Shown here piece by piece: positions 8,752 to 26,876 of a stretch of 64,000 nt of DNA. Source of the DNA: Escherichia coli (GTDB lineage: Bacteria > Pseudomonadota > Gammaproteobacteria > Enterobacterales > Enterobacteriaceae); the NCBI RefSeq assembly GCF_003019035.1, contig NZ_CP027447.1; one strand, given 5' to 3'. Made by a program: the position numbers and the translations under genes. How positions within the stretch are numbered: position 1 is the stretch's first letter; each line of letters begins with the position of its first letter. The notes under the pieces are model-generated. The model made no database searches. It was given only the letters and a program-made list of their open reading frames with translations, and was not told where the DNA came from.

Positions 8752-8884
8752 ACCGACTCCTGATTCAAATGTATGATGGTATTCATTGAACAGAACAATG
8801 GATCCCCCACCGTTGCTGACCGCAAAACATTTACGCGATTAATACTGCGCGTAATATAATTAAAAATCCAGCATTCTCAATCCA

Positions 8885-9391
8885 TTACGAAAGAAGATGG
8901 CATTGCGGAATAGCCAGACTTCCTCGTGTTAACGTCCGACAAAATGCGTCATTGACAGCGGTTTCTCTGGCATGACAGATTTCATTAAGATAATGGATTA
9001 ATGCTACAGCCCCACCCGCCGGACCATTCAGCAAACGGGCATTGTGTTCTGTAATCAAAATTACCGTCGTTCCCTCAGAATGAGCGAGCCATTCTGGTAC
9101 GGATATCTCGCTTTCAGCTGCTATCAATAGCAGCACTGAATAATCGCTATACGCATCTGATAACGATTGCACAGGCCCACCGTCAAAAGGCTGGAAATCT
9201 TGCTGCCAGTCCTCACCAACAAAACAGGTTATTGGCAATATTTCCGCCAGATGTTTCGCCAGATCCACATCTCCAGATAAGAGGCAAAAAAGAGCTATCG
9301 ATTCGGGTTTTATCGTTTTCATGCCCCTCGCCCTCCACTTAATTTCCTGTAATGGCGGTCTGGTTGATAAGCCATGAAACAAGATTGCCAC
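8885..9391 (-). CDS. Hypothetical protein (145-168 aa) at the position of the missing cbi operon; function unknown
   Basis: Open frame between the riboswitch-like leader and cobU. GTG start at 9391, or ATG (MKTIKPESIALF…) with a GGAGG-like RBS at about 9322. I do not recognise a family; may be a remnant or fusion. Confidence 0.35.
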   Translation of the reverse strand: MAILFHGLSTRPPLQEIKWRARGMKTIKPESIALFCLLSGDVDLAKHLAEILPITCFVGEDWQQDFQPFDGGPVQSLSDAYSDYSVLLLIAAESEISVPEWLAHSEGTTVILITEHNARLLNGPAGGAVALIHYLNEICHARETAVNDAFCRTLTRGSLAIPQCHLLS

Positions 9392-9539
9392 ACCTTAAGT
9401 GCAGCCCTGGTGCCTGTCGGCACTGCGATGAAAGAACTAAATGATGCCGCCATACCCTGATCCTTTCAGGGTGGTAGGGGTATAAAGACGCGCCTGTACT
9501 CTACCGGACGCTTCCGGGCAACCCACTTCCCACCGAAGT

Positions 9540-9705
9540 TGTTGGTATTGACTGACTGGCTGGTCTTCTGGCTTAGCGTCATCCTCTCCCGACCTTCCCA
9601 ATCTCGCGATCAGTGGCATTTTCGGGTTTGTCAGCATTACAGCAGCGGGGGCTGCGAGGGATTTTCACCCTCTTCCCAGGCACAAATGTGCCACACCTGT
9701 CAGCG
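9540..9705 (-). ncRNA. Cobalamin (adenosylcobalamin) riboswitch, cob-operon leader type
   Basis: Minus-strand RNA contains GGGAAGAGGGUGAAAAUCCCUCGCAGCCCCCGCUGCUGUAA (fits the cobalamin core GGGAA…GGUG.AA..CC…GC.G.CCCGC…GU.A), then GCCACUG, then a B12-box AAGCCAGAAGACCAGCC (compare btuB AAGCCCGAAGACCUGCC). Confidence 0.7.
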
Positions 9706-9806
9706 TATGTTATGAGCTGATTTCACTTTTCCCATAACAGGGAAATAACGTTAATTATTCATTCCAGAGTTTATTTAAACCGTCCTCTTTTTTTGGGGCA
9801 TTTACT

Positions 9807-10721
9807 CTATACCGTTTCCATCGCCGCATTATCACTCACTTGCTGTCGATACACCTGCGGCGTAACCTGATAAGTCTGACGGAAAACTTTGCAAAAATAA
9901 CTTGTTTGCGAAAAACCTAAATTACGCGCAATGCTGGCGATGCTCCAGTCACTATGGCACAGTAACTCACGAGCGCTGGCCATCCGTTGTTGGTTTACCC
10001 ACGCATTAAACCCGATTCCATGGTATTTCTTAAATAACTTACTGAAATAATAAGGGCTTAGATAAACGTGCGAGGCGACATCTTCCAGACGCAAATCGTC
10101 TGATAAATGCGCATCAATATAACGTAAAGCTTTTTTCATTTTATTGTCGTGGGGACCAGGCGCACGAGTCTGGCGCAACGAATCTGACTGAGATTTGTTC
10201 TCTTTAATAACCACAAAATTGAGTTGTTTTTTTAGGCAATTTTCTACAATCAACTTCAACAAATCCGCAGAGGCCATAACTCTTGAGTAATCCATCTCAG
10301 GGACTTTGCGAAATTCATTAAGTAATTCGGGATCTGCCTGCCAGCAATCATCGACATTCAGAATATCGACCAAATCGACATCATCATTACGCAGACGAAC
10401 TTGCCCGCACAATACAAAACCAACTAAATGTCCGGCGATTACCAGTGGAATAGAGAAATCGGTTAATCCGGCATGACAGCGATAAATACAAGGCTGATCG
10501 GATTTAGAGGCTTCCAGGCCCCCACAACGATCGCTCATGCGACATCGAGTGCTTAGCTGAGGGTGTTGCCGCATCATCTGACAAAATGGAGTGAAGTTAA
10601 ACAGCTCGGAAATTTCATCGCCGTGAATATTGACCACGACAACCGCAAGGCTGGTCGCCTGCGCAAAATCCTGCGCGATTTTATTAATGAGTTCTGAATT
10701 AAGTGTCGCCGCAGAAATCAT
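9807..10721 (-). CDS. pocR: AraC-family regulator PocR (activator of pdu/cob in response to 1,2-propanediol)
   Basis: 304-aa ORF with C-terminal AraC HTH (…IASIARNLGFSQTSYFCKVFRQTYQVTPQVYRQ…); sits between the cob leader and pduF as in Salmonella. Confidence 0.88.
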   Translation of the reverse strand: MISAATLNSELINKIAQDFAQATSLAVVVVNIHGDEISELFNFTPFCQMMRQHPQLSTRCRMSDRCGGLEASKSDQPCIYRCHAGLTDFSIPLVIAGHLVGFVLCGQVRLRNDDVDLVDILNVDDCWQADPELLNEFRKVPEMDYSRVMASADLLKLIVENCLKKQLNFVVIKENKSQSDSLRQTRAPGPHDNKMKKALRYIDAHLSDDLRLEDVASHVYLSPYYFSKLFKKYHGIGFNAWVNQQRMASARELLCHSDWSIASIARNLGFSQTSYFCKVFRQTYQVTPQVYRQQVSDNAAMETV

Positions 10722-10923
10722 GATAAAACCTCCCAGTTAATTTATTGTTATAGCAAAACAATTGTTTTACATTTAATCTTCACATCATCCTTGATGATTT
10801 ACTGACGAGAAGCACAAAGGACAATAACAAAAGCCTCCGTGAAGCGGGAGACTTTTTAATAAGTTCGGAAAGCAGATCACAAACAGTAAAAAAATAAACG
10901 TTTATAACTGCCAGATTATTTCG

Positions 10924-11733
10924 TTATTCGCTGATTTCTTTAGGCGTTACACTATTGACAGGTAAATTCTTTGCAATGAGATAGCGATAAATCGCCGCAC
11001 CAACACATGCCCCAATGATCGGTGCAATAATGGGTACAATGAAATAAGGAATATTGCGTCCACCAGTCATCGCAATTTCCCCCCAACCCGCAAACCAGGT
11101 GAAAATTTTAGGTCCAAAATCACGCGCTGGATTCATGGCAAAACCGGTTAATGGTCCGGTAGAAGCACCAATAACAGCAACCAGAATACCAATGAGTAAA
11201 GGCGCAAGCGGTCCTTTGGGTACGCCATTACCGTCATCGGTCAACGCCATAATCAACCCCATTAACATGGACGTTATGACCACTTCGACCAACGCAGCTT
11301 GCCATACATTAATCGCCGCTGCTGGATAAGTACTGAAGATACTGGCGAGTTGTAAACTTTCTGCGCTACCACGCACTATATTGTGAGCCGATTCAAAATC
11401 GGTAAACAAACTGCTGTAGAGAGAATATGCCAGAACCGCACCACCAAAGGCACCCGCTAATTGCGCCACACAAAATGGCAGCACTTTACGGGCTGGGAAA
11501 GAGGCAAACAGCCACAGAGCAATGGTAACTGCCGGGTTGAGATGAGCGCCGGAAATACCTGCCGTAAGGTAAACAGCAAGCGAAATCCCTAACCCCCATA
11601 TGATACAAATTTCCCACAGTCCCAGACTTGCCCCGGCAACTTTCAGGGCGCACAAACAACCAATGCCAAAAAAGAGGAACAGTCCGGTGCCCAAAAACTC
11701 GGCAACGCATTGCGCCTTGAGTGAATCATTCAT
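10924..11733 (-). CDS. pduF: Propanediol diffusion facilitator (MIP/aquaglyceroporin family)
   Basis: MIP-family ORF with NPA motif (…GAHLNPAVT…); start set at MNDSLKAQ…; divergent from pduA. Confidence 0.88.
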   Translation of the reverse strand: MNDSLKAQCVAEFLGTGLFLFFGIGCLCALKVAGASLGLWEICIIWGLGISLAVYLTAGISGAHLNPAVTIALWLFASFPARKVLPFCVAQLAGAFGGAVLAYSLYSSLFTDFESAHNIVRGSAESLQLASIFSTYPAAAINVWQAALVEVVITSMLMGLIMALTDDGNGVPKGPLAPLLIGILVAVIGASTGPLTGFAMNPARDFGPKIFTWFAGWGEIAMTGGRNIPYFIVPIIAPIIGACVGAAIYRYLIAKNLPVNSVTPKEISE

Positions 11734-12244: not shown

Positions 12245-12529
12245 ATGCAACAAGAAGCGTTAGGAATGGTAGAAACCAAAGGCTTAACTGCCGCCATAGA
12301 GGCCGCGGACGCCATGGTGAAGTCGGCAAATGTTTTGCTGGTCGGCTACGAAAAAATAGGTTCCGGGCTGGTGACCGTCATCGTTCGTGGTGATGTCGGG
12401 GCGGTAAAAGCGGCAACAGACGCAGGTGCCGCAGCTGCGCGTAACGTCGGCGAAGTAAAAGCCGTGCACATTATTCCCCGCCCACATACCGATGTCGAAA
12501 AAATCTTACCAAAGGGAATTAACCCATGA
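12245..12529 (+). CDS. pduA: Bacterial microcompartment shell protein PduA (BMC-H)
   Basis: 94-aa BMC-domain protein ([30 protein letters not shown]…). Confidence 0.93.
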
Positions 12530-13338
12530 GCAGCAATGAACTGGTCGAACAGATCATGGCGCAGGTCATCGCTCGCGTAGCGACGCCAGAGTATGAGGTT
12601 CTCCCGAAAACCACTCATCAAATACGAGAGACGGCTATGGCAGAAAAAAGCTGCACGTTAACAGAATTTGTTGGCACCGCTATTGGCGACACTGTAGGTC
12701 TGGTCATTGCGAACGTTGATAGCGCCCTGTTGGACGCAATGAAACTTGAAAAACGCTATCGTTCCATTGGCATTCTGGGTGCGCGTATTGGCGCAGGTCC
12801 ACACATTATGGCCGCTGATGAAGCGGTAAAAGCCACCAACACTGAAGTTATTAGCATTGAACTTCCTCGCGATACTAAAGGCGGTGCCGGACACGGCTCA
12901 TTGATCCTCTTAGGTGGCAACGATGTTTCCGACGTGAAACGCGGTATTGAAGTTGCCCTGAAAGAACTCGATCGAACCTTTGGCGATGTCTATGCCAACG
13001 AAGCCGGACATCTTGAGCTGCAATATACCGCCCGCGCCAGCTATGCACTGGAAAAAGCGTTTGGTGCACCATTGGGACGGGCTTGCGGCGTTATTGTCGG
13101 CGCTCCAGCCGCTGTGGGTGTTCTGATGGCCGACACCGCGCTGAAGTCCGCCAATGTGGATGTCGTGGCATACAGCTCCCCCGCTCAAGGCACCAGCTAC
13201 AGCAACGAAGTCATTCTGATTATCTCGGGTGACTCCGGCGCGGTCCGCCAGGCGGTCATCTCCGCACGCGAAATCGGTAAAACCGTGCTTTCGACTCTCG
13301 GCGATACACCGAAAAACGATCGCCCTTCCTACATCTGA
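12526..13338 (+). CDS. pduB: Microcompartment shell protein PduB (tandem BMC)
   Basis: 270-aa ORF overlapping the pduA stop; tandem-BMC-like sequence. Confidence 0.9.
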
Positions 13339-13356
13339 ATTCTCTGAGGCAGATTT

Positions 13357-15021
13357 ATGAGATCGAAAAGATTTGAAGCACTGGCAAAACGCCCGGTCAA
13401 CCAGGACGGTTTCGTTAAAGAGTGGATTGAAGAAGGCTTCATTGCGATGGAAAGCCCGAACGATCCTAAACCGTCAATCAAAATTGTTAACGGCGTCGTT
13501 ACCGAACTGGATGGAAAACCCGCCAGTCAGTTTGACCTGATCGACCACTTTATCGCCCGCTACGGCATCAATCTCGCGCGCGCAGAAGAAGTCATCGCGA
13601 TGGATTCGGTAAAACTTGCCAATATGTTGTGCGATCCAAATGTCAAACGTAGCGATATCGTTCCCCTTACCACAGCAATGACGCCTGCAAAAATCGTCGA
13701 AGTGGTTTCGCAGATGAACGTGGTAGAGATGATGATGGCGATGCAGAAAATGCGCGCCCGTCGAACACCATCACAACAGGCTCACGTCACCAACATCAAA
13801 GATAACCCGGTACAAATTGCCGCCGACGCAGCTGAAGGCGCATGGCGCGGGTTTGATGAACAGGAAACCACCGTTGCCGTTGCTCGCTATGCACCGTTCA
13901 ACGCCATCGCCCTGCTGGTCGGCTCACAGGTGGGACGTCCGGGCGTCTTGACCCAGTGTTCACTGGAAGAAGCCACCGAACTGAAACTCGGTATGTTAGG
14001 CCACACCTGTTACGCCGAAACAATTTCTGTCTATGGTACAGAACCTGTTTTCACCGATGGCGATGATACCCCGTGGTCAAAAGGATTTCTCGCGTCATCC
14101 TATGCGTCTCGCGGCTTAAAAATGCGCTTTACTTCCGGCTCCGGCTCTGAAGTACAGATGGGTTACGCGGAAGGCAAATCAATGCTTTATCTCGAGGCTC
14201 GATGCATTTACATCACCAAAGCCGCAGGCGTTCAGGGTCTGCAGAATGGTTCGGTAAGCTGCATCGGTGTTCCATCAGCTGTGCCATCAGGCATCCGCGC
14301 AGTATTAGCGGAAAACTTAATTTGCTCATCGCTGGATCTGGAATGCGCCTCCAGTAATGACCAGACCTTTACCCACTCGGATATGCGCCGTACCGCACGT
14401 TTCCTGATGCAATTTCTGCCAGGTACCGACTTTATCTCTTCCGGTTTTTCCGCTGTGCCGAACTACGACAACATGTTTGCTGGTTCAAACGAAGATGCTG
14501 AAGACTTCGATGATTACAACGTCATTCAGCGTGACCTGAAGGTTGATGGCGGGCTGCGACCAGTACGCGAAGAAGATGTTATCGCAATCCGCAATAAAGC
14601 CGCTCGCGCTTTACAGGCTGTCTTTGCCGGTATGGGACTACCGCCAATTACCGATGAAGAAGTCGAAGCGGCAACCTATGCCCACGGTTCGAAAGATATG
14701 CCTGAGCGCAATATTGTGGAAGACATCAAGTTCGCCCAGGAGATTATCAATAAAAACCGTAACAGCCTGGAAGTGGTGAAAGCCCTGGCGCAAGGCGGTT
14801 TTACCGATGTCGCCCAGGACATGCTCAACATGCAAAAAGCAAAACTGACCGGCGATTATCTCCATACCTCAGCCATCATCGTCGATGACGGACAAGTGCT
14901 CTCAGCGGTCAATGACATCAATGATTACGCAGGGCCAGCTACAGGTTACCGCCTGCAAGGGGAACGCTGGGAAGAGATCAAAAATATTCCCGGTGCACTT
15001 GATCCCAACGAAATTGACTAA
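13357..15021 (+). CDS. pduC: B12-dependent propanediol dehydratase, large subunit
   Basis: 554-aa ORF (MRSKRFEALAKRPVNQDGFVKEWIEEGFIAMESPNDPKPSIKIV…), canonical PduC. Confidence 0.94.
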   Translation: MRSKRFEALAKRPVNQDGFVKEWIEEGFIAMESPNDPKPSIKIVNGVVTELDGKPASQFDLIDHFIARYGINLARAEEVIAMDSVKLANMLCDPNVKRSDIVPLTTAMTPAKIVEVVSQMNVVEMMMAMQKMRARRTPSQQAHVTNIKDNPVQIAADAAEGAWRGFDEQETTVAVARYAPFNAIALLVGSQVGRPGVLTQCSLEEATELKLGMLGHTCYAETISVYGTEPVFTDGDDTPWSKGFLASSYASRGLKMRFTSGSGSEVQMGYAEGKSMLYLEARCIYITKAAGVQGLQNGSVSCIGVPSAVPSGIRAVLAENLICSSLDLECASSNDQTFTHSDMRRTARFLMQFLPGTDFISSGFSAVPNYDNMFAGSNEDAEDFDDYNVIQRDLKVDGGLRPVREEDVIAIRNKAARALQAVFAGMGLPPITDEEVEAATYAHGSKDMPERNIVEDIKFAQEIINKNRNSLEVVKALAQGGFTDVAQDMLNMQKAKLTGDYLHTSAIIVDDGQVLSAVNDINDYAGPATGYRLQGERWEEIKNIPGALDPNEID

Positions 15022-15030
15022 GGGTGAGAA

Positions 15031-15699
15031 ATGGAAATTAACGAAAAATTACTGCGTCAGATTATCGAAGGCGTGCTGGCAGAAATGCAAACCAGCGACA
15101 AGTCCGTTTCATTTCGTGCACCTGTCTCTGCAACTGTCTCTTCAGTGCCAGATACCGGAAATTTTCTGACCGAAATTGGCGAAGCCCAACAAGGCACTCA
15201 GCAAGATGAAGTCATTATTGCTGTAGGCCCGGCGTTCGGCCTGGCGCAAACCGTCAATATCATCGGTATTCCGCATAAAAACATTTTGCGCGAAGTGATT
15301 GCCGGTATCGAAGAAGAAGGCATTAAAGCCCGTGTGATTCGCTGCTTTAAATCGTCCGATGTCGCATTCGTAGCAGTCGAAGGAGATCGTCTTAGTGGTT
15401 CAGGTATTGCTATCGGTATTCAGTCGAAAGGCACAACGGTTATCCACCAGCAGGGACTTCCTCCCTTGTCTAACCTGGAACTTTTCCCACAAGCGCCTTT
15501 GTTGACGCTGGATACTTATCGTCAGATTGGCAAAAACGCCGCGCGTTATGCGAAGCGCGAGTCTCCACAACCGGTGCCGACCCTCAACGATCAAATGGCA
15601 CGACCGAAATACCAGGCCAAATCTGCCATTTTGCATATTAAAGAGACGAAGTACGTGGTCACTGGCAAAAAACCGCAAGAACTGCGCGTGACGTTTTAA
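15031..15699 (+). CDS. pduD: Propanediol dehydratase, medium subunit
   Basis: 222-aa ORF in the conserved pduCDE order. Confidence 0.92.
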
Positions 15700-15713
15700 C
15701 AAAGGAAACCTTC

Positions 15714-16232
15714 ATGAATACCGATGCAATTGAGTCGATGGTCAGGGACGTGTTGAACCGCATGAACAGTTTACAGGATGCAGCTCCTGTTTCTGCGGTC
15801 CCCAGCGCGTCAATACAGAGCGCCAAAGTGACGGATTACCCGCTGGCAAATAAACATCCGGAATGGGTTAAAACAGCAACCAATAAAACGCTCGACGATT
15901 TCACTCTGGAAAATGTGCTAAGCGATAACGTCACCGCCCAGGATATGCGCATTACCCCTGAAACATTGCGTATTCAGGCTGCGATTGCCAGAGATGCTGG
16001 TCGCGATCGCCTGGCGATGAATTTCGAACGCGCCGCTGAGCTTACCTCAGTACCGGATGATCGCATCCTCGAAATCTACAATGCGTTACGCCCTTATCGT
16101 TCGACTAAGCAAGAACTTATTGCCATTGCTGACGATCTTGAACGGCGTTATCAGGCCAAAATTTGTGCTGCATTTGTCCGTGAAGCTGCGGAACTTTATG
16201 TCGAGCGCAAAAAACTGAAAGGCGACGATTAA
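15714..16232 (+). CDS. pduE: Propanediol dehydratase, small subunit
   Basis: 172-aa ORF in the conserved pduCDE order. Confidence 0.92.
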   Translation: MNTDAIESMVRDVLNRMNSLQDAAPVSAVPSASIQSAKVTDYPLANKHPEWVKTATNKTLDDFTLENVLSDNVTAQDMRITPETLRIQAAIARDAGRDRLAMNFERAAELTSVPDDRILEIYNALRPYRSTKQELIAIADDLERRYQAKICAAFVREAAELYVERKKLKGDD

Positions 16233-16241
16233 GGACGAACT

Positions 16242-18732: not shown

Positions 18733-19155
18733 GTGAAGCAATCACTGGGATTACTTGAAGTCAGTGGTCTGGCACTCGCCATCAGTTGCGCAGATGCTAT
18801 GGCAAAAGCCGCGTCCATCACGCTGGTTGGCCTTGAGAAGACCAATGGCTCAGGCTGGACGCTCATCAAAATCACCGGTGACGTCGCCTCGGTTAATGCG
18901 GCGATCGCGACGGGAGCCAGTTTCGCCGGACAGCGAAATGGCCTCGTCGCACACAAAGTGATTGCCCGTCCGGGAGACGGCATTCTGCCCCACACAACTG
19001 AAGCATTGACTGTGACGGTTGAAACAAGCGAAACACCAGCAACAACCGTCATCTCAGAGATTATCAGTTGTAATTTGTGTCTTAACCCGGCATGTCAGCG
19101 GCAAAAAGGTGAGCCCCGCTCACTTTGCCTGCACGCCAATAAGCGAGGGGAGTAA
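18733..19155 (+). CDS. pduK: Microcompartment shell protein PduK (BMC with C-terminal extension)
   Basis: 140-aa ORF, BMC domain plus Cys-containing tail (…CNLCLNPACQRQKG…). Confidence 0.85.
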   Translation: MKQSLGLLEVSGLALAISCADAMAKAASITLVGLEKTNGSGWTLIKITGDVASVNAAIATGASFAGQRNGLVAHKVIARPGDGILPHTTEALTVTVETSETPATTVISEIISCNLCLNPACQRQKGEPRSLCLHANKRGE

Positions 19156-19157
19156 CA

Positions 19158-19790
19158 GTGGATAAACAAACCTTGCAGGAAACAGTGAGCCAGATTCTGG
19201 ATGAGATGCGCGAGCGCCCTATCCCTCTGGGTGTTTCCAGTCGTCATATTCATCTTTCAACAGCGGATTATTTGCGTCTTTTTCCTGAACAACCGATTAG
19301 CGAGAAAACGCTGTTAATGCAACCTGGCCAATTCGCTGCTGAACAGGTTGTTACGCTGGAGGGACCAAAAGGTAAATTGCACAACGTTCGCTTGTTGGGG
19401 CCGCTACGCAATGCAAGCCAGGTGGAAATTTCCCGTACGGACGCCAGAACGTTAGGGATCACCGCTCCGCTACGCATGTCAGGCGATCTCAGCGGCACTC
19501 CAGGGATTCGTTTGATAAGCCCATTTGCGGAACTGGAGATCACATCTGGCGTCATTGTCGCGCAACGGCATATTCATATGTCTCCGCTGGATGCCCTGAT
19601 TTATGGCGTTACGCATGGCGATAAAGTGGCGGTTGCCATTAAAGGTGATGAGCGACGACTGATATTCGAAAACGTCGCTGTTCGCGTCTCTCCGGATATG
19701 CGTCTTGAAATGCATATTGATACCGATGAAGCCAACGCCGCAGGGGCTGATAGCCCTGACGTTTTTGCCACACTGGTGTCAGTGCCATGA
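19158..19790 (+). CDS. pduL: Phosphate propanoyltransferase
   Basis: 210-aa ORF at the conserved position. Confidence 0.88.
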   Translation: MDKQTLQETVSQILDEMRERPIPLGVSSRHIHLSTADYLRLFPEQPISEKTLLMQPGQFAAEQVVTLEGPKGKLHNVRLLGPLRNASQVEISRTDARTLGITAPLRMSGDLSGTPGIRLISPFAELEITSGVIVAQRHIHMSPLDALIYGVTHGDKVAVAIKGDERRLIFENVAVRVSPDMRLEMHIDTDEANAAGADSPDVFATLVSVP

Positions 19791-20278
19791 ATAACATGCT
19801 GATGCAACGTATTGTTGACGAAGTGGTTTTTCGCCTTAAACAACGTGCGGGAAAAACACTCGTGCTGACTGTTTTTCAACTGCGAGACGCCAGCGTTCAA
19901 GAGATAGTTCATCAGTATGCATCATTACAAATCCGATATGTCGATCTGCCGTTGTTACGACAACTTGCGGAGAACAAAACGTCAGATCGAGCAGCAATTC
20001 AGATACACGAAACGTTAGCCTGGGGATTGCACATTCAATTGTCGTTGCAGCGTCATTTCCTGAACGCCATTGAATTGAAGACTCTCGCCCGTCTACCGCT
20101 AAGCTGGTGCGACGAGCAAGGGCAACCGATCTACCTTCATCGTGATCGACTTTTAAATTATGCCGATATTGCACAGTTAAGCTCGGGAATACTGGTGTTA
20201 CAGCGAAAATGTTGTGTGACCGCACTGGCTCGTGAAGCGGCAATTACCCGAAATATTCAGTTAATCAGGCAGGAGTAA
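19787..20278 (+). CDS. pduM: Microcompartment structural protein PduM
   Basis: 163-aa ORF; length and position match PduM. Confidence 0.82.
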   Translation: MNNMLMQRIVDEVVFRLKQRAGKTLVLTVFQLRDASVQEIVHQYASLQIRYVDLPLLRQLAENKTSDRAAIQIHETLAWGLHIQLSLQRHFLNAIELKTLARLPLSWCDEQGQPIYLHRDRLLNYADIAQLSSGILVLQRKCCVTALAREAAITRNIQLIRQE

Positions 20279-20281
20279 CCT

Positions 20282-20557
20282 ATGCATCTGGCTCGAGTCA
20301 CTGGCGCGGTAGTATCCACGCAAAAATCACCTTCTCTGATCGGGAAAAAACTGCTGCTGGTTCGCCGGGTCAGTGCTGACGGCGAACTGCCTCTCACGCC
20401 ATTAACCGGCGACGAAGTTGCCGTTGATTCCGTCGGCGCAGGCGTTGGTGAGTTGGTACTCCTCAGCAGTGGTTCCAGCGCCAGACATGTGTTTTCCGGC
20501 CCTAACGAAGCCATCGACCTAGCAGTGGTCGGCATTGTCGATACGCTTTCGCGCTAA
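20282..20557 (+). CDS. pduN: Microcompartment vertex protein PduN (BMC-P / EutN-CcmL family)
   Basis: 91-aa ORF ([28 protein letters not shown]…) typical of pentameric vertex proteins. Confidence 0.88.
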
Positions 20558-20568
20558 GGAGCTGAAAG

Positions 20569-21576
20569 ATGGCAATTTATACCCGAACAGGTGATTCAGG
20601 AAGTACGTCTTTATTTACCGGACAGCGCGTCAGCAAAACTCATCTACGTGTCGAAACCTATGGCACGCTGGATGAACTGAACGCGACACTCAGTCTGTGT
20701 TATTGCGCCACCGCCATCGAAAGCCATCGCATCTTACTGGAAGCCATTCAACAACAGATATTTTGGTTTAGCGCCGAACTCGCCAGTGAAAGCGAACAGC
20801 CGTCAGCGCAGCAGCGTTACATCGGTACGGAAGAAATTGCCGCGCTGGAAAACGCGATCGATAGCGCAATGAACGCCGTCCCCCCGGTTCACAGCTTCAT
20901 TCTGCCTGGTCGATGTGAAGCTGCAAGCCGCATGCATTTCGCCCGCACGGTGGCTCGACGGGCTGAAAGACGTCTGGTTGAACTGACAACAGAAACCACC
21001 GTCCGGAATGTTTTGCTGCACTATATCAACCGACTTTCCGATTGCCTGTATGCCCTCGCCCGCGTGGAAGACAACGTTGCTCATCAAAACCTGATGATTC
21101 AGGAAATCACAAAACGTTATCACGAAGCCAACCACACACCAGCATTGAAGGAACGCACAATGCCGCTCACTTTTCAGGATCTTCACCAGCTCATTCGTAG
21201 TGCGGCAATGCGCGCAGATGAACTGCATATTCCCGTTGTCATCAGCATTGTTGATGCCAACGGAACAGAAAGTGTTACCTGGCGGATGCCTGATGCCCTG
21301 TTGGTCAGCAGTGAACTGGCACCGAAAAAAGCCTGGACCGCCGTGGCGATGAAAACGGCAACCCACAAACTTGCTGATACCGTGCAACCCGGCGCGCCGC
21401 TTTACGGGCTCGAAAGCCATATGCAAGGCAAAGTCGTCACTTTTGGTGGCGGCTTCCCCCTCTGGCGTGACGGAAAATTGCTTGGCGGGCTTGGCATCAG
21501 CGGCGGTAGCGTTGAACAAGACATGGATATTGCCCAAAGCGCAATGGCGGCAATTAACGTGGGAGTAAACCAATGA
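20569..21576 (+). CDS. pduO: ATP:cob(I)alamin adenosyltransferase PduO (with C-terminal DUF336-like domain)
   Basis: 335-aa ORF (MAIYTRTGDSGSTSLFTGQRVSKTHLRVETYGTLDELNA…), canonical PduO-type N-terminus. Confidence 0.92.
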   Translation: MAIYTRTGDSGSTSLFTGQRVSKTHLRVETYGTLDELNATLSLCYCATAIESHRILLEAIQQQIFWFSAELASESEQPSAQQRYIGTEEIAALENAIDSAMNAVPPVHSFILPGRCEAASRMHFARTVARRAERRLVELTTETTVRNVLLHYINRLSDCLYALARVEDNVAHQNLMIQEITKRYHEANHTPALKERTMPLTFQDLHQLIRSAAMRADELHIPVVISIVDANGTESVTWRMPDALLVSSELAPKKAWTAVAMKTATHKLADTVQPGAPLYGLESHMQGKVVTFGGGFPLWRDGKLLGGLGISGGSVEQDMDIAQSAMAAINVGVNQ

Positions 21577-22958
21577 ATAACTCTGAATTAGAAACACTGA
21601 TCCGCAATATTCTGCGTGAGCAGCTTGCCCCCGCTACGCAACGAGCGCAAAGAAACGCTATTTTCCAGACTGTTGATGAAGCGGTCTGCGCAGCACACCA
21701 GGCCTTTTTACGCTTTCAACAGTGCCCGCTTAAAACCCGTAGCGCCATTATCAGCGCCATTCGCGAAGAATTAATGCCCCGCCTTACCGAACTGGCAGAA
21801 GAAAGCGCCAGTGAAACAGGGATGGGAAATAAAGAGGATAAGTATCTAAAGAACAAAGCAGCACTCAATAATACGCCAGGAATTGAAGATTTAACCACCA
21901 CTGCACTAACCGGTGATGGTGGCATGGTTTTGTTTGAATACTCTCCGTTTGGGGTCATTGGCTCGGTCACGCCAAGCACCAACCCCACGGAAACCATCAT
22001 TAACAACAGCATCAGCATGCTGGCAGCAGGTAATAGCGTCTACTTCAGTCCACACCCGGGAGCCAAAAACGTTTCGTTAAAACTGATTACCATAATCGAA
22101 GACATCGCGTTTCGCTGTAGTGGCATTCATAACCTGATCGTTACCGTATCTGAACCGACCTTTGCTGCTACCGAACAGATGATGGCGCACCCTAAAATCA
22201 GCGTTCTGGCGATTACCGGTGGCCCGGGGATCGTCGCCATGGGAATGAAAAGTGGCAAGAAAGTGATTGGTGCCGGTGCGGGTAACCCACCCTGCATTGT
22301 CGATGAAACGGCGGATATTGTGAAAGCCGCCGAGGACATCATCAACGGCGCTTCATTTGATTACAACCTACCGTGTATCGCTGAAAAAAGCCTGATTGTC
22401 GTGGCGTCAGTGGCAGAGTATTTAATTCAACAGATGCAAAGCTTTGGCGCACTTCTTCTTAACCATGAACAAACGGAGAAATTGCGTGCAATTTGCCTGC
22501 CAGACGGTAGCGCCAACAAAAAACTGGTTGGGAAAAGCCCATCAGCCTTGCTGGAAGCGGCAGGCCTCCCTTTGCCCGCAAAAGCGCCGCGCCTACTGAT
22601 TGCTGTTGTCGACGCCAATGATAGTTGGGTTACTTGTGAACAACTGATGCCAATGCTGCCCATTGTGAAGGTCAACGATTTTGATAGCGCTCTCACCCTG
22701 GCGCTGAAAGTGGAAGACGGCTTGCACCACACGGCAATTATGCACTCGCAGAACGTCTCACGGCTCAACCTTGCCGCACGCGTTATGCAAACCTCAATCT
22801 TTGTCAAAAACGGCCCCTCCTGGGCGGGCATTGGCGTCGGCGGCGAAGGCTTTACCACCTTTACCATTGCAACACCGACCGGAGAAGGGACAACGTCAGC
22901 ACGGACTTTTGCCCGCTCACGACGCTGCGTGTTAACCAGCGGCTTTTCAATTCGCTAG
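21573..22958 (+). CDS. pduP: CoA-acylating propionaldehyde dehydrogenase
   Basis: 461-aa aldehyde-dehydrogenase-family ORF with an N-terminal encapsulation-like helix. Confidence 0.92.
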   Translation: MNNSELETLIRNILREQLAPATQRAQRNAIFQTVDEAVCAAHQAFLRFQQCPLKTRSAIISAIREELMPRLTELAEESASETGMGNKEDKYLKNKAALNNTPGIEDLTTTALTGDGGMVLFEYSPFGVIGSVTPSTNPTETIINNSISMLAAGNSVYFSPHPGAKNVSLKLITIIEDIAFRCSGIHNLIVTVSEPTFAATEQMMAHPKISVLAITGGPGIVAMGMKSGKKVIGAGAGNPPCIVDETADIVKAAEDIINGASFDYNLPCIAEKSLIVVASVAEYLIQQMQSFGALLLNHEQTEKLRAICLPDGSANKKLVGKSPSALLEAAGLPLPAKAPRLLIAVVDANDSWVTCEQLMPMLPIVKVNDFDSALTLALKVEDGLHHTAIMHSQNVSRLNLAARVMQTSIFVKNGPSWAGIGVGGEGFTTFTIATPTGEGTTSARTFARSRRCVLTSGFSIR

Positions 22959-22968
22959 AGAAACGGAA

Positions 22969-24081
22969 ATGAATACTTTTTCACTGCAGACGCGTTTATA
23001 CAGCGGACCAGGAAGTCTCAAGGTACTTAGCCGTTTCTCTCATAGACACATCTGGATTATTTGCGATGCCTTTCTGGCACACTCACCACTCATTGACACG
23101 TTGCATCAGGCGCTGCCCGACAGTAATCGTCTCAGTATTTTTAGCGAAATAACGCCCGACCCAACTATCCAGACCGTGGTGAAAGGCATTGCGCAAATGC
23201 AGACTTTACGCCCGGATGTGGTTATCGGTTTTGGCGGCGGTTCTGCCCTGGACGCCGCAAAAGCGATTGTCTGGTTTGGTCGCCAGTGTGGCATTGAAAT
23301 TGAAACCTGCGTAGCCATTCCTACCACCAGCGGTACCGGTTCCGAAGTGACCAGTGCTTGTGTCATCAGCGATTCTGAGAAAGGGATTAAATTTCCCCTT
23401 TTCGATAATGCACTTTATCCGGATATCGCGATCCTTGATCCATCTTTGGTCGTCAGCGTGCCACCGGCGATAACGGCCAATACCGGGATGGATGTTTTAA
23501 CCCATGCACTTGAAGCTTATGTTTCTCCCCGCGCCAGCGACTTCACGGATGCACTGGTCGAAAAAGCCGTGCAAATTGTTTTTCAATACCTGCCCACTGC
23601 AGTGAAGAAAGGCGATTGTCTTGCCACCCGTGGCAAAATGCATAATGCATCGACGCTTGCAGGAATAGCCTTTAGCCAGGCCGGACTCGGTTTAAACCAT
23701 GCAATTGCTCATCAACTCGGCGGACAGTTTCATCTGCCGCACGGCCTGGCGAATGCGCTCCTGCTCACGGCAGTTATCCGCTTTAATGCTGGCGATCCGC
23801 GCACAGCCAAACGCTATGCCCGGCTGGCGAAAACGTGCCATTTATGCCCGGACAACGCCAATGACACCGCCAGCCTGAATGCACTTATTCAACATATTGA
23901 GCAGCTTAAAACAACCTGTACGCTGCCGACTCTTACCAATGCGCTGAAAGAAAAAAAAGCAGAATGGTCAGTTCGCATACCAGATATGGTTCAGGCGGCA
24001 CTGGCGGATGCAACGTTGCGTACCAACCCGCGTGCGGCTGATGCTTCCGCGATTGCAGAACTGCTCGAGGAGTTGTTATGA
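22969..24081 (+). CDS. pduQ: 1-Propanol dehydrogenase (iron-containing ADH family)
   Basis: 370-aa Fe-ADH-like ORF (…GGGSALDAAKA…). Confidence 0.9.
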   Translation: MNTFSLQTRLYSGPGSLKVLSRFSHRHIWIICDAFLAHSPLIDTLHQALPDSNRLSIFSEITPDPTIQTVVKGIAQMQTLRPDVVIGFGGGSALDAAKAIVWFGRQCGIEIETCVAIPTTSGTGSEVTSACVISDSEKGIKFPLFDNALYPDIAILDPSLVVSVPPAITANTGMDVLTHALEAYVSPRASDFTDALVEKAVQIVFQYLPTAVKKGDCLATRGKMHNASTLAGIAFSQAGLGLNHAIAHQLGGQFHLPHGLANALLLTAVIRFNAGDPRTAKRYARLAKTCHLCPDNANDTASLNALIQHIEQLKTTCTLPTLTNALKEKKAEWSVRIPDMVQAALADATLRTNPRAADASAIAELLEELL

Positions 24082-25421
24082 ATGTCGGATTAACCTCCTG
24101 CGACGACCAGACCATCCGCGAGCGAGTACAAGCAGCAGGTGTCGTGGGTGCTGGCGGCGCAGGTTTTCCAACCCATATTAAGCTACAAGCGCGTGTTGAC
24201 ACGTTCCTGGTGAATGCGGCGGAATGCGAACCCATGTTGAAAGTGGATCAACAGTTAATGGCGCAGCAAGCCAGCCGCCTGCTTCGCGGTGTTCACTATG
24301 CGATGAAAGCCACCGGGGCCAGTAGCGGAATCATCGCGCTGAAAGAGAAATATCAACTGGCAATAAACGCACTCACCCCCCTATTACCACCGGATATCCG
24401 CCTGCATATTTTGCCCGACGTTTACCCCGCAGGAGACGAAGTGCTGACCATCTGGATGGCAACTGGTCGCCGCGTTCCACCCGCTGCATTACCCGTTAGC
24501 GTCGGTGTGGTGGTCAATAATGTTCAAACCGTACTTAATATTGCCAGAGCCGTCGAGCAACAGTATCCAGTGACGCGCCGCACACTCACTATTAATGGTG
24601 CAGTGGCGAAACCAATAACGGTAACCGTCCCCATCGGCATGTCTTTACGTGAAGTCCTGGCGCTGGCGGGCGGCGCAACAGTAGATGCTCCTGGTTTTAT
24701 CAATGGCGGGCCGATGATGGGAAGTTTGATCACATCGCTCGACACACCCGTCAGCAAAACCACTGGCGGCTTGCTGGTTTTACCCAACTCTCATTCACTG
24801 ATCCAACGTCGAATGCAGAATGACCGCAGCGTACTTACCGTCGCGAAAACTGTTTGTGAGCAATGCCGCTTGTGTACCGATCTCTGCCCACGTCATTTAG
24901 TCGGTCACGAACTGGCACCCCATTTATTAGTACGTGCGGTTAACTACCAACAGCTCGCTACGCCACAACTGTTACTGACGGCGCTCACCTGTTCGGAGTG
25001 CAACGTCTGCGCCAGCGTCGCCTGTCCGGTAGGAATTTCACCAATGCGCATAAACCGCCTGCTTAAGCAGGAATTACGCGCACAAAATCTCCGCTACGAA
25101 GGTGCTTTAAATCCTGCAGATCCCTTGGCAAATTATCGACTGATTCCCGTAAAACGGCTGGTAACCAGACTGGGCTTAACCCCGTGGTATCAGGATGCGC
25201 CATTGTCTGAACAGGTGCCTCAGCCCGAAAAAGTGACGTTATTGTTACGCCAGCACATCGGTGCCAGCGCAATTGCGTGTGTACAAAAAGGCGATCGCGT
25301 CGTTCATGGGCAATGTGTAGGTCAAATTCCACACGGCACATTAGGTGCCCCCATTCATGCCAGTATTGATGGCATGGTCAGCGATGTGACAGAAAACGCG
25401 ATTACGCTTGTGAGAGGTTAA
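24078..25421 (+). CDS. pduS: Cobalamin reductase PduS (Fe-S flavoprotein)
   Basis: 447-aa ORF with two Cys clusters ([12 protein letters not shown]… / [13 protein letters not shown]…). Confidence 0.9.
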
Positions 25422-25423
25422 CG

Positions 25424-25978
25424 ATGTCGAAAGCGGTAGGTATTTTAGAACTTAGCAGTATCGCGAAAGGGATGGAAACCGGCGACGCCATGCTGAAAAG
25501 CGCCAACGTTGAGTTACTGGTCAGCAAAACGCTATGCCCCGGAAAATTTCTGCTGATGCTCGGTGGCGATGTGAGCGCGGTGCAACAGGCCATCAACAGC
25601 GGTGCTTCCCTTGCTGGTGAAATGCTGGTCGACAGTCTTGTCCTGCCGAATATTCATCCCAGTCTCCTTTCTGCAATCAGCGGACTGAACCATGTTGAGC
25701 AGCACCGGGCTGTCGGCGTAGTCGAAACCTGGAGTGTCGCTGCCTGCATTGACGCTGCCGATTGTGCTGTCAAAGCTGCGAATGTCATTCTCGTTCGCGT
25801 GCATATGGCTTTTGGCATTGGCGGAAAATGCTACATGGTGGTTGCTGGCGATATTTCAGATGTTAATAACGCGGTCTCTGTCGCCAGCGAGCGTGCGGGA
25901 GAAAAAGGTTTGTTGGTCTATCGGTCGGTGATTGCCCGTCCACATGAAGCCATGTGGCGTCAGATGGTGGAGGGATAA
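25424..25978 (+). CDS. pduT: Microcompartment shell protein PduT (tandem BMC)
   Basis: 184-aa tandem-BMC ORF. Confidence 0.9.
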
Positions 25979-26328
25979 TGACAACTCAGCACACAACTGA
26001 ACGGATGATTCAGGAATATGTCCCTGGTAAGCAGGTCACGCTGGCACATGTCATCGCCAATCCTGGGAAGGATCTGTTTAAGAAATTGGGTTTACCAGAC
26101 ACCGTTTCTGCTATTGGCATTCTGACGATTACCCCCAGCGAAGCATCTATCATCGCATGCGATATCGCCACAAAATCAGGCGCTGTAGAGATCGGTTTTC
26201 TTGATCGTTTTACCGGTGCCGTAGTGCTGACTGGTGATGTTTCAGCCATTGAATATGCACTTAGCCAGGTTACCCGTACGCTGGGTGAAATGATGCGCTT
26301 TACCGCCTGCCCCATTACGCGGACCTGA
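25954..26328 (+). CDS. pduU: Microcompartment shell protein PduU (permuted BMC)
   Basis: 124-aa ORF overlapping the pduT 3' end. Confidence 0.88.
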
Positions 26329-26332
26329 CGTT

Positions 26333-26776
26333 ATGCAACGTATGATGCTTATCGGCCCCAGCCAGTGCGGAAAAACGTCACTCACGCAATGTCTGCGTGG
26401 CGAAAATATTCATTATCAGAAAACGCAGGCAATCGTCTGGTCCCCGACCACCATTGATACACCAGGCGAATACCTCGAAAACCGCAGCCTCTACAGTGCA
26501 TTGTTGGTCAGTGCCTGCGAAGCAGACATTATCGCGCTGGTACTTAATGCGGGCGCACCGTGGTCCCCTTTTTCGCCAGGCTTTACCTCGTCAATGAATC
26601 GTCCGGTCATTGGAGTAGTAACCAAAGCAGATTTAGCCAGCATGGAACAAATATCTTTGGTGAAATGTTGGTTACGGGAAGCTGGAGCGCACAACGTGTT
26701 AGTAACCAGTGCGGTTAATAACAATGGAGTTACAGAACTTTTTGCCTTGCTGCATACAGAAGATGTCTGTCGCTAA
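26333..26776 (+). CDS. pduV: Small GTPase-like protein PduV
   Basis: 147-aa ORF with P-loop ([21 protein letters not shown]…); last pdu gene present. Confidence 0.88.
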
Positions 26777-26834
26777 TTTCGATAGGTTATCAGATGGGAA
26801 TGATGACTTTGATACACAGAAAAGAATCAATGAG

Positions 26835-26863
26835 CAATGAGGGTTGCCGGGCAACCCTCATTG
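26835..26863. terminator. Strong hairpin between convergent pduV and yeeX (likely bidirectional terminator)
   Basis: Near-perfect palindrome caatgagggttgcc-g-ggcaaccctcattg; T-rich tract follows on the minus strand (yeeX side). Confidence 0.55.
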
Positions 26864-26876
26864 AATAAAACAGGAA

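Follow-up and report, generated by a model that had tools for sequence, protein, structure and literature searches.

A cut-down cob/pdu block as the probable resident propanediol-utilisation locus of Escherichia coli

Introduction

The cob/pdu supra-operon of Salmonella enterica (cbiA-P cobUST / pocR pduF / pduA-X) occupies the chromosomal slot between ldtA and yeeX, reading pduF-pocR-cbiA..P-cobUST-ldtA at its left end and pduV-pduW-pduX-yeeX-yeeA-sbmC at its right, and allows anaerobic de novo synthesis of B12. Citrobacter holds a complete block in the same slot, with the same pduV-pduW-pduX-yeeX 3' end. A pdu locus is also already known from E. coli, for which the AIEC strain LF82 serves as the published reference; its "22 CDSs" correspond to 21 genes plus the remnant that we call cbiG' (PMC2941450). 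Horizontal transfer is the common reading of its origin in the literature (PMC5517970, PMC9997745).

We analysed a 64,000-nucleotide stretch of an E. coli chromosome (the window), in which positions 8752-26876 hold pocR, pduF and 19 intact pdu genes (pduA-V) flanked by cobU and yeeX/tmaR. With a probability of about 0.9, we regard this as the resident chromosomal pdu locus of the species. It appears to be a cut-down remnant of an ancestral B12-synthesis/propanediol block, with its genes intact and predicted to work.

Gene content and predicted function

The ORF listing, the RefSeq annotation of NZ_CP051751.1 (a 100% identical record) and NCBIfam scans agreed on all gene calls (Table 1), and bear out the gene set that an earlier note had read between cobU and yeeX. 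E. coli SCU-301 matches the window at 100% identity. Measured against the NCBIfam family models, each of the 21 genes is full length, and the pdu genes follow the order pduA, B, C, D, E, G, H, J, K, L, M, N, O, P, Q, S, T, U, V (12245-26776, plus strand). Across Escherichia species, dN/dS was 0.01-0.02 for pduC, 0.03-0.04 for pocR and 0.03-0.08 for pduF, indicating strong purifying selection.

Table 1. Coordinates of the features in and beside the pdu locus.
Feature	Position	Strand	Basis
cobT, cobS, cobU	6375-7454, 7466-8209, 8206-8751	-	NCBIfam equivalogs above cut-off; RefSeq
Promoter-like site TTGAGA-16-TATATT	8853-8880	-	10/12 matches; consensus scan only
cbiG', 145-codon ORF	8885-9322	-	First ~119 residues: N-terminal third of cobalt-precorrin-5A hydrolase CbiG
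44-codon ORF from original cbiA start codon	9319-9453	-	TGA overlaps cbiG' ATG (ATGA)
7-bp hairpin enclosing AAGGA Shine-Dalgarno, directly 5' of cbiA AUG	9454-9472	-	MFE and centroid folds
Cobalamin riboswitch aptamer	9541-9715	-	Rfam RF00174, 109.4 bits (gathering 31.5), model 1-189/189; RefSeq
pocR, AraC-family activator of cob/pdu regulon	9807-10721	-	NF047788 PocR equivalog, 553 bits (cut-off 500)
pduF, MIP-family propanediol diffusion facilitator	10924-11733	-	TIGR00861 MIP, 224.6 bits; RefSeq name
pduA, hexameric BMC shell protein	12245-12529	+	BMC-family match
pduB, trimeric BMC shell protein	12526-13338	+	NF011944 PduB equivalog, 473 bits
pduC, pduD, pduE, B12-dependent diol dehydratase large, medium, small subunits (signature enzyme)	13357-16232	+	Full length; NF011979 1072 bits, NF011616 389 bits, NF011971 PduE 358 bits
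pduG, pduH, diol dehydratase reactivase alpha, beta	16242-18414	+	TIGR04491, 960 bits; RefSeq names
pduJ, pduK (shell), pduL (phosphate propanoyltransferase), pduM, pduN (pentameric vertex protein)	18434-20557	+	NCBIfam: BMC family, NF011652 PTAC 252 bits, NF011957 PduM 240 bits, EutN/CcmL family
pduO (adenosyltransferase), pduP (CoA-acylating propionaldehyde dehydrogenase), pduQ (1-propanol dehydrogenase), pduS (Fe-S cobalamin reductase)	20569-25421	+	TIGR00636, NF011927 (719 bits), Fe-ADH family, RnfC-like; RefSeq names
pduT, pduU (shell), pduV (EutP/PduV GTPase-like; last operon gene)	25424-26776	+	TIGR02526, EutS-like NF012012, TIGR02528 185 bits
Spacer between pduV and yeeX stops, 100 bp	26777-26876		pduV stop 26776, yeeX stop 26877
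tmaR (yeeX), conserved right backbone flank	26877-27206	-	NF040881 TmaR, 188 bits

Judged from its genes, the locus would encode a complete propanediol-utilisation bacterial microcompartment. PocR would switch on transcription upon 1,2-propanediol and PduF would admit the diol, while a shell of PduA, B, J, K, N, T and U, together with PduM, would enclose a pathway in which PduCDE forms propionaldehyde. PduP would convert this to propionyl-CoA and PduQ to 1-propanol, PduL would yield propionyl-phosphate, and PduGH, PduO and PduS would maintain the active adenosylcobalamin cofactor. Because PduW is missing, the last ATP-yielding step is expected to run through AckA or TdcD, or else propionyl-CoA would enter the methylcitrate cycle. 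Likewise, since the cbi genes are missing, pdu+ E. coli would have to import the corrin ring, and cobUST, whose roles are nucleotide-loop assembly and cobinamide salvage, could complete cobinamide into cobalamin. These roles of AckA/TdcD and of corrinoid import are proposed from general knowledge of E. coli and Salmonella rather than from the window. PduX, required solely for de novo synthesis, would be dispensable here. B12-dependent use of 1,2-propanediol on imported corrinoids, as the earlier note had predicted, fits a gene set of PduCDE, PduGH, PduO, PduS and cobUST with no intact cbi gene, and agrees with the failure of AIEC strain CUMT8 lacking pduC to grow on 1,2-propanediol (PMC9220930).

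Scars of the ancestral block at the left and right ends

At the left end, cobUST are what survives of the ancestral cob operon at its 3' end; their products are 79-83% identical in amino acid sequence to those of Salmonella, and they stand in the same order, adjoining ldtA. The earlier note had taken cbiA-cbiP to be wholly absent. No intact cbi gene is present, but the cob leader with its riboswitch, the cbiA start and a 5' fragment of cbiG remain. When Salmonella CbiA-P, PduW and PduX were used as tblastn queries, the sole match was the N-terminal fragment of CbiG (residues 1-119; 44% identity, E~1e-20). The same ORF, cbiG', aligned with profile positions 1-126 of 351 in NCBIfam NF004463 (E=1.4e-20, far under the 546-bit cut-off) and had no match in Pfam. 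Its dN/dS was 0.40-0.56, compared to 0.01-0.17 for its neighbours; cbiG' is thus a decaying remnant from the interior of the cbi operon, under relaxed constraint. The cbiG' and 44-codon ORFs and the full-length riboswitch had escaped the first reading of this DNA.

The 44-codon ORF is the scar of a cbiA-cbiF deletion. Recognisable cbiA is limited to its first 3 codons (possibly ~14), and at window position 9445, 3 codons into the gene, homology at the DNA level to Salmonella, Citrobacter and Klebsiella runs out. E. whittamii has a cbiA-start ORF of equal length. Similarity of the spacer in the cbiA'-cbiG' scar to the cbiF tail was not significant.

The riboswitch is the former cbi/cob operon leader and now precedes cbiA'-cbiG'-cobUST. 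It is 82.8% identical to the Salmonella cob leader, a conservation above that of neighbouring coding DNA, and we infer that it regulates cobUST. The hairpin at the cbiA start is presumably its expression platform; the folding z-score of the segment was not significant (-0.71), and the sequence is kept in four Escherichia lineages, E. albertii and E. fergusonii. The promoter-like site, which lies in the 133-bp spacer upstream of cobU in a region also kept in K-12, is a candidate riboswitch-independent cobUST promoter.

At the right end, exactly 100 bp separate the pduV stop from the yeeX stop, as previously noted, and this spacer is the scar of a pduW-pduX deletion; tblastn found no remnants of PduW or PduX at E<0.05. 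Homologues of this spacer occur in K-12 and E. albertii. Within it, a hairpin with a 13-bp stem (26836-26862) serves as the tmaR/yeeX terminator; Salmonella and Citrobacter have an equivalent hairpin in the corresponding position. The neighbour is likewise tmaR in Salmonella, Citrobacter, E. fergusonii and E. albertii.

Three proposed deletions older than E. coli

The Salmonella and E. coli loci share the ldtA-yeeX slot, gene order, orientation, regulator, riboswitch leader and microcompartment pathway, with protein identities of 97% for PduC, 89% for PocR and 82% for CobU and nucleotide identity of 73-83%. What E. coli lacks in contrast to Salmonella is cbiA-F, the stretch running from the 3' two-thirds of cbiG to cbiP, pduW and pduX, and with them the capacity for de novo B12 synthesis. 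We propose that an ancestral enterobacterial block, ldtA-cobTSU-cbiP...A-pocR-pduF-pduA...X-yeeX, was turned into the E. coli form by three deletions totalling ~16 kb. These took out cbiA from codon ~4 through cbiF, cbiG from codon ~120 through cbiP, and pduW with pduX, in keeping with the truncation relative to Salmonella claimed earlier.

All three deletions are shared by E. albertii, E. whittamii and two divergent clades, and are therefore older than E. coli. In E. albertii cobU is broken, and gene calls for pduQ and pduT are missing from one strain. In E. fergusonii the locus lies in the same slot at 73-82% nucleotide identity to that of E. coli, with cbiG' after the leader at the same spacing and neither cbi genes nor pduX. 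Unlike E. coli, it keeps pduW (404 aa) and additionally lacks cobUST, so that cbiG' abuts ldtA. The cbiA-cbiF deletion is thus probably also older than the E. fergusonii split; a single shared event is suggested by the identical start point, spacing and cbiG' start rather than by recognisable spacer sequence. The E. fergusonii-E. coli distance over the whole region, flanks included, equals that between Salmonella and E. coli.

The identities of pdu and flanks matched in every comparison, and divergence was in step across lineages. Nucleotide identity to Salmonella, Citrobacter and Klebsiella (71-83%) is the same as for backbone yeeA and sbmC, and the GC and GC3 of pdu equal those of the backbone, with GC3 tracking the flanks in each genus. 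The locus showed no boundary repeats, no integrase or other mobility genes, no IS and no adjacent tRNA, and the published description of the LF82 genome names no tRNA, IS or integrase in this region (PMC2941450). Among other genera, cbi genes directly follow pocR in all 12 enterobacterial loci that were mapped in full, out of 80 returned by a PocR scan. Eleven of these run from cbiA onward, while Hafnia paralvei starts with a cbiF fragment followed by intact cbiG; no truncated donor form was seen among the 12. The earlier note had set a truncation against an ordinary form inherited from a donor lineage. The form is ordinary in E. coli, E. albertii, E. whittamii and the two clades, yet it is still a truncation, and it has no donor lineage.

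Distribution in E. coli and scars in K-12

Of 5,426 complete E. coli genomes, 636 (11.7%, ~1 in 9) carry the pdu locus. Among them is LF82, in which it (NC_011993.1, 2083448-2101340) is gene-for-gene identical in architecture from cobUST through tmaR: the 145-aa hypothetical ORF (cbiG'), cobalamin riboswitch, pocR, pduF and pduA-V are all shared. Segments are 98-99.8% identical to the window, with strain-level sequence differences only; beyond ldtA, on the left flank, LF82 has an extra sugar-PTS block that is absent from the window. Some E. coli carry an internal ~1.5-kb deletion in the locus.

The K-12 cobU-CP4-44-yoeF-tmaR region has the same flanks as the window. The earlier note had described K-12 DNA in this slot as unrelated, and the 12.7-kb CP4-44 cryptic prophage with IS5 and IS2 does stand there, but K-12 also retains about 300 bp at the 3' end of cbiG' (window 8752-~9056, with a 9-bp deletion), together with the 183-bp pduV tail (the 3' part of yoeF) and an identical 100-bp spacer (window ~26594-26876). 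The ~17.5 kb that was replaced comprises the riboswitch, pocR, pduF and pduA through most of pduV, leaving cobUST without a riboswitch leader in K-12. Such scars are widespread: the last 183 bp of pduV are retained in 5,410 of the 5,426 genomes (99.7%), K-12 included, and the cbiG' tail in 4,642 (at least 86%). Since pdu-negative E. coli bear these scars and the same slot and truncation are found elsewhere, the pdu-negative state is derived: K-12-type strains arose by deletion and do not preserve the original state. In most E. coli, the DNA from cbiG' to the final 183 bp of pduV was later almost entirely lost, with CP4-44-like DNA standing in place of the lost segment in the K-12 type.

Alternative explanations

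The most serious alternative, which we consider possible though not favoured, is that in this strain's lineage the ancestral locus was lost and then restored by homologous recombination of a large cobT-his/O-antigen segment from another pdu+ E. coli. The locus is unevenly distributed and sits poorly on the E. coli tree (27 of 327 strains, retention index 0.26; PMC7577506). In ST372, O-antigen switches accompany its gains and losses, and multiple gains have been proposed (PMC9997745). Moreover, the highly recombinogenic his/O-antigen region lies ~20 kb from the pdu locus in the window, and over the 20 kb that was searched the window's nearest relatives reach no more than 99.1% identity. The similar divergence of flank and pdu locus fits co-transfer of the flank and its absence alike. 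This explanation is compatible with a resident locus; individual strains, possibly this one, may have regained a pdu+ allele from another E. coli by homologous recombination.

It is very improbable that, without pduW, pduX and cbi, the operon is a relic nearing pseudogenisation that no longer supports propanediol catabolism. Deletion of the locus from most E. coli, the decay seen in relatives (E. albertii cobU, the strain without pduQ/pduT, the ~1.5-kb deletion) and relaxed constraint on cbiG' would suit such a relic, but every gene in the window is intact, pdu dN/dS is 0.01-0.08 across Escherichia species, and AIEC strains with this locus require pduC for growth on 1,2-propanediol (PMC9220930).

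Least credible of all is a horizontal island, in which an already-truncated block from Salmonella, Citrobacter or Klebsiella replaced cobU-yeeX DNA: although it draws on the low frequency of the locus, the prevailing literature view and the classical loss-and-reacquisition model for cob/pdu (cited in PMC3158058), this reading, akin to the earlier note's island in an E. coli-type backbone, is contradicted by the ancestral position without mobility genes or boundary repeats, the backbone-like identity and GC3, the same truncation at the same site and at species-level divergence in other Escherichia, and the near-universal pduV scar.

Gene content and predicted function of the pdu locus

The window matches the chromosome of E. 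coli SCU-301, isolated from a human rectal swab, with 100% identity. We compared it with NCBIfam and RefSeq, and both bore out what the earlier note had read between cobU and yeeX, namely pocR, pduF and pduA to pduV at the coordinates listed below, with 21 of 21 genes full length.

Features of the locus and of the remaining window (window coordinates)
Feature	Position	Strand	Remark
tRNA-Asn genes (three)	1015-1090, 2839-2914, 5247-5322		left of the locus, among yeeO, cbl and nac; none adjoins pdu
cobU	8206-8751	-	left border of locus
Segment retained in K-12	8752 to ~9056		spacer and cbiG' 3' end, with a 9-bp deletion
Promoter-like site	8853-8880		just upstream of cobU
cbiG'	8885-9322	-	145-codon ORF, annotated hypothetical
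cbiA-start ORF	9319-9453	-	44 codons, opened by the cbiA ATG at 9453
cob leader	9719-9445		homology spans aptamer, ends three codons into cbiA
Cobalamin riboswitch aptamer	9541-9715	-	RF00174; Rfam and RefSeq
pocR	9807-10721	-	full length vs NCBIfam model; RefSeq name agrees
STnc230	10782-10865	+	pocR-pduF intergenic
pduF	10924-11733	-	full length vs NCBIfam model; RefSeq name agrees
pduA, B, C, D, E, G, H, J, K, L, M, N, O, P, Q, S, T, U, V (n = 19)	12245-26776	+	each full length vs NCBIfam; RefSeq names agree; pduV stop at 26776
Segment retained in K-12	26594-26876		last 183 bp of pduV and identical 100-bp spacer
Hairpin closing the spacer	26836-26862		tmaR terminator
tmaR/yeeX	26877-27206	-	right border of locus; stop at 26877
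O36-family O-antigen cluster	56766-58019, 44782-45240		wzy annotated with a frameshift and an internal stop; IS200C transposase between wzzB and hisIE

The signature enzyme, the B12-dependent diol dehydratase PduCDE, is full length in all three subunits (NF011979, 1072 bits; NF011616, 389 bits; NF011971 PduE equivalog, 358 bits). BMC-family, PduB equivalog, PduT-type and EutN/CcmL-family matches place all three shell classes in the locus, namely BMC-H (PduA/J/K/U), BMC-T (PduB/T) and BMC-P (PduN). The aldehyde-processing core is present as PduP (acylating aldehyde dehydrogenase; NF011927, 719 bits), PduQ (Fe-ADH family) and PduL (NF011652 PTAC, 252 bits), and cofactor maintenance as the reactivase PduGH (TIGR04491, 960 bits), the adenosyltransferase PduO (TIGR00636 N-terminal domain) and the cobalamin reductase PduS (RnfC-like Fe-S flavoprotein). 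PduW (propionate kinase) and PduX (L-threonine kinase), which close the operon in Salmonella LT2, are accessory and are not needed for the compartment. The pdu genes are under strong purifying selection (dN/dS 0.01-0.08).

By homology to the Salmonella system, PocR would switch on the regulon and PduF would let in 1,2-propanediol, which PduCDE would convert to propionaldehyde inside the shell. PduP and PduQ would then yield propionyl-CoA and 1-propanol, PduL would form propionyl-phosphate, and PduGH, PduO and PduS would regenerate adenosylcobalamin. Since PduW is absent, the ATP-yielding step would fall to AckA or TdcD, or propionyl-CoA would enter the methylcitrate cycle; likewise, with cbi absent, the corrin ring would be imported and cobinamide completed by cobUST. 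Microcompartment formation and 1,2-propanediol catabolism are predicted from this gene content, with indirect evidence from an adherent-invasive E. coli (AIEC) mutant, delta-pduC in the same type of locus, that does not grow on 1,2-propanediol (PMC9220930). The locus is already known biology; it marks E. coli, many Crohn's-associated adherent-invasive isolates included, that in the gut can use 1,2-propanediol derived from fucose and rhamnose. The pocR-pduF intergenic region also matches STnc230, an enterobacterial sRNA in Rfam that was first found in Salmonella, with 76 bits (gathering 50); the match is antisense to pocR and pduF and overlaps terminator-like hairpins.

The pdu locus is very probably ancestral

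The earlier note had taken the locus for an island in an E. coli backbone, and this did not hold. In Salmonella the complete block sits between ldtA and yeeX, the same slot that the reduced E. coli block occupies. No integrase, IS or transposase is annotated from cobU to tmaR, no direct repeats pairing both borders were found, and the nearest tRNA-Asn is 3.4 kb off, past ldtA-cobTSU. The genome paper for the AIEC reference strain LF82, which has the same locus, gives no tRNA, IS or integrase for the pdu region (PMC2941450). The GC content of pdu is 0.517, compared to 0.47-0.53 in the neighbouring backbone. In all five taxa compared, the GC3 of pdu follows that of its neighbours yeeA and sbmC; the extremes are E. 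fergusonii (0.47/0.49) and C. farmeri (0.63/0.60). Nucleotide identity of the locus is likewise that of its flanks in every comparison: 96-99.8% with three other E. coli (B2 strain LF82 included), ~91-94% with E. whittamii and two divergent clades, ~88-95% with E. albertii, and 73-82% with E. fergusonii, Salmonella and Citrobacter, for which yeeA and sbmC give 71-74%. Taken together, these findings indicate that the pdu locus is not an inserted island.

Scars of the locus in pdu-negative E. coli

K-12 does carry the CP4-44 prophage between cobU and yeeX, as the earlier note had it, but the site is not otherwise empty of the locus: CP4-44 separates a retained piece of cbiG' (a CbiG remnant upstream of cobU) from a retained pduV tail, and K-12 YoeF matches the EutP/PduV family over its last 55 residues. 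Among 5,426 complete genomes, the whole locus is present in 636 (11.7%), the pduV tail in 5,410 (99.7%) and the cbiG' tail, often as a RefSeq "cobalamin biosynthesis protein", in at least 4,642 (85.6%). Strain N96 (L093, 2829-6048) bears a second deletion allele, in which cbiG' (119 aa) runs straight into a 3' fragment of pduV, with IS66 after it; small cbiG'/pduV' matches of this kind occur in ~200 complete genomes. Since the scars are found in K-12 and in 99.7% of genomes, pdu-negative E. coli represent the derived state, and together with the other deletion alleles the scars place a pdu-positive, cbi-less and pduWX-less state in the ancestor of the species.

Published surveys describe pdu in 27 of 327 strains with a retention index of 0.26 (PMC7577506), as well as gains and losses of pdu within ST372 (PMC9997745). 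This patchy distribution is best read as loss combined with exchange of two alleles by homologous recombination. For pangenome and association studies, presence of pdu would therefore mean that an ancestral allele was retained or restored by recombination, not that a foreign island was gained. The same history explains two oddities of K-12, the pduV tail within yoeF and the "cobalamin biosynthesis protein" pseudo-ORF by cobU, which is a cbiG fragment. In the papers searched, yoeF was not mentioned, and CP4-44 occurred together with propanediol in only one, which by its title concerns an unrelated topic. We regard as only moderately new the ancestral status of the locus, its scars in almost every E. 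coli genome, and a possible leader role of the riboswitch for cobUST.

In three pdu-positive strains (EC8, S1-ESP-02-A and EC67), just 91% of the locus is matched, as two segments, and no reactivase alpha subunit stands among the top feature names; they probably have an internal ~1.5-kb deletion around pduG. LF82 (L094, 600-7800) has an extra block of galactitol-like PTS sugar-transport and regulator genes just past ldtA that is not in the window, in agreement with a report that pdu co-occurs with a second galactitol locus (PMC5517970).

Truncation at the pdu 3' end

The earlier note was right that the operon is truncated and lacks pduW and pduX, and the 100 bp that it had counted between the pduV and yeeX stops is exact. 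The junctions of the truncation could be mapped. Both Salmonella enterica and Citrobacter farmeri read pduV-pduW-pduX-yeeX-yeeA-sbmC, E. fergusonii reads pduV-pduW-yeeX without pduX, and E. albertii and the window read pduV-yeeX, with ~2.2 kb lost. Searches with the Salmonella proteins (tblastn, window 1-30000, the 100-bp spacer included) found no PduW or PduX remnant at E<0.05, and spacer alignments were uninformative for pduW and pduX, apart from an ATG-TCT that may mark where pduW started. Since the spacer following pduV is homologous among the window, K-12 and E. albertii, it points to a single deletion event. Its closing hairpin has a counterpart at the equal position in Salmonella and Citrobacter. 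PduX serves only the aminopropanol linker of de novo cobalamin synthesis, and its loss wherever cbi was lost in Escherichia fits this role.

Remnants of the cbi block behind a cobalamin riboswitch

As the earlier note had claimed, the window has no intact cbi gene; the cbiA-cbiP block is not wholly absent, however, since the leader, the cbiA start and CbiG residues 1-119 remain. The aptamer scores 109.4 bits (gathering 31.5) over all 189 positions of the riboswitch model. By sensitive blastn with intact operons of Salmonella, Citrobacter and Klebsiella, the leader is homologous as far as cbiA codon 3, up to which it is 82.8% identical to that of Salmonella. The TGA of the cbiA-start ORF overlaps the ATG of cbiG' (ATGA), the first ~119 residues of which are the N-terminal third of CbiG: they match NF004463 at profile positions 1-126 of 351 (E = 1.4e-20) and Salmonella CbiG with 44% identity (tblastn, E ~1e-20). 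There was no Pfam match to cbiG', and PADLOC found nothing. These residues are all that is detectable of the cbiA-cbiP set, 17 genes for the corrin ring and for cobalt transport. The nucleotide-loop assembly genes cobU, cobS and cobT are present (NF004469, TIGR00317 and NF000996, above cut-offs).

Since no cbiP remnant precedes cobU (tblastn at E<0.05, window 1-30000) and the cbiG N-terminus is kept, the cbi block was lost by at least two deletions. Compared with the complete Salmonella operon, the first runs from cbiA codon ~4 through cbiF, where 6.0 kb are represented here by 122 unassignable bases, and the second from cbiG codon ~120 through cbiP, where 7.7 kb are replaced by at most 235 bases. 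A single clean deletion would have left the 145-aa ORF as a cbiA'-'cbiP fusion; this was ruled out by family and tblastn searches, which identify it as the cbiG N-terminus and thus indicate two deletions. The 122 nt that separate the cbiA start from cbiG' resemble a cbiF tail no more than shuffled sequence does (258 of 300 shuffles scored equal or better), and they are only weakly similar to the 5' end of cbiA (35 of 300 shuffles equal or better).

The dN/dS of cbiG' is 0.40-0.56, compared to 0.11-0.17 for cobU and 0.03-0.05 for cobS, and cbiG' is only ~43% identical to intact CbiG proteins; the intact proteins of Citrobacter, Klebsiella and Intestinirhabdus share 81-87% identity with that of Salmonella. 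In four lineages at dS ~0.3 apart, cbiG' and the 44-codon ORF have both stayed open, with in-frame indels only. No other non-coding DNA of the region is as well conserved as the leader, which has 89-93% identity to E. fergusonii and E. albertii compared to 76-80% for cbiG'. The Shine-Dalgarno sequence just 5' of the cbiA AUG lies within a 7-bp hairpin. Since folding energy of the leader segment gave no significant signal (z = -0.71), the case for an expression platform is one of conservation only.

The open remnant ORFs and the conserved leader are compatible with selected translation through to cobUST under riboswitch control. Tentatively, and at odds that we would place well below even, the cbiA-start ORF, cbiG' and cobUST behind the riboswitch may form an operon cut down to a B12-sensing leader and salvage genes, with the remnants kept open because their translation, set by the riboswitch at the ribosome-binding site of cbiA, would extend expression to cobUST via coupling or protection from Rho polarity. 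If so, pdu-positive Escherichia would adjust their cobinamide salvage to the supply of B12, as the K-12 type no longer can, and the cob/pdu block would be vertical in Escherichia, Salmonella and Citrobacter and not lost and reacquired. The B12 riboswitch before cobUST is kept by pdu-positive strains and absent from K-12, in which the promoter-like site just upstream of cobU could be a source of cobUST expression.

Other genera and Escherichia species

The earlier note had allowed that canonical loci might themselves end at pduV and lack cbi. The reduced pdu/cob form is indeed the ordinary one in Escherichia, whereas the mapped loci of other genera keep cbi genes, and Salmonella and Citrobacter keep pduWX. 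Among 80 loci returned by the PocR scan, 12 from other genera were mapped in full; cbi genes directly follow pocR in all 12, and in 11 of them from cbiA onward. The remaining locus, of Hafnia paralvei (L054, 11669-12974), has pocR, then a cbiF fragment and full-length cbiG without cbiA-E, a partial cbi layout unlike that of Escherichia. Neither megablast with a Klebsiella-type operon nor distant blastn with Salmonella cbiF-H found intact cbi genes in any complete E. coli genome. "Escherichia sp. MOD1-EC7003" (L041, NZ_PTRE01000057.1), a candidate Escherichia with intact cbi, was rejected, since across pdu and cbi it shares 95% identity with Klebsiella spallanzanii; either the record is mislabelled or contaminated, or the strain carries Klebsiella-type DNA.

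The layout pocR-riboswitch-cbiG'-cobUST-ldtA is found in E. whittamii, in two divergent species representatives labelled E. coli, and in E. albertii, there with cobU broken. In E. albertii (L088 and L089, ~310-700), cobU lies in two pieces in different frames (54-70% identity) without a gene call, and L089 has no pduQ or pduT gene calls; decay of both the salvage and the pdu genes seems to be under way in this species. E. fergusonii has a like leader, cbiA start and spacing, with the cbiG' ATG at the same aligned position; in its loci (L092, L091, L005) cobUST is lost, cbiG' adjoins ldtA and pduW is kept. Its cbiA-F deletion may be that of E. coli, but the spacer is too diverged to prove it. 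Over the whole region, flanks yeeA and sbmC included, E. fergusonii (73-82%) and Salmonella stand equally far from E. coli, which for E. fergusonii exceeds the divergence generally expected.

Among complete E. coli genomes, only NZ_CP166879.1 (E. coli 48, deer) has a distant Salmonella cbiG match (66%) off the cobU site, at 5239888-5240244; a second pdu-type locus of foreign origin is probable in this genome. A divergent PduV (P0031; 146 aa, 72% identity) was also observed. Lastly, a 383-bp contig of a Streptomyces cahuitamycinicus assembly (NZ_POUC01001014.1, L068) encodes a PocR that is 98% E. coli-type and is almost certainly contamination.
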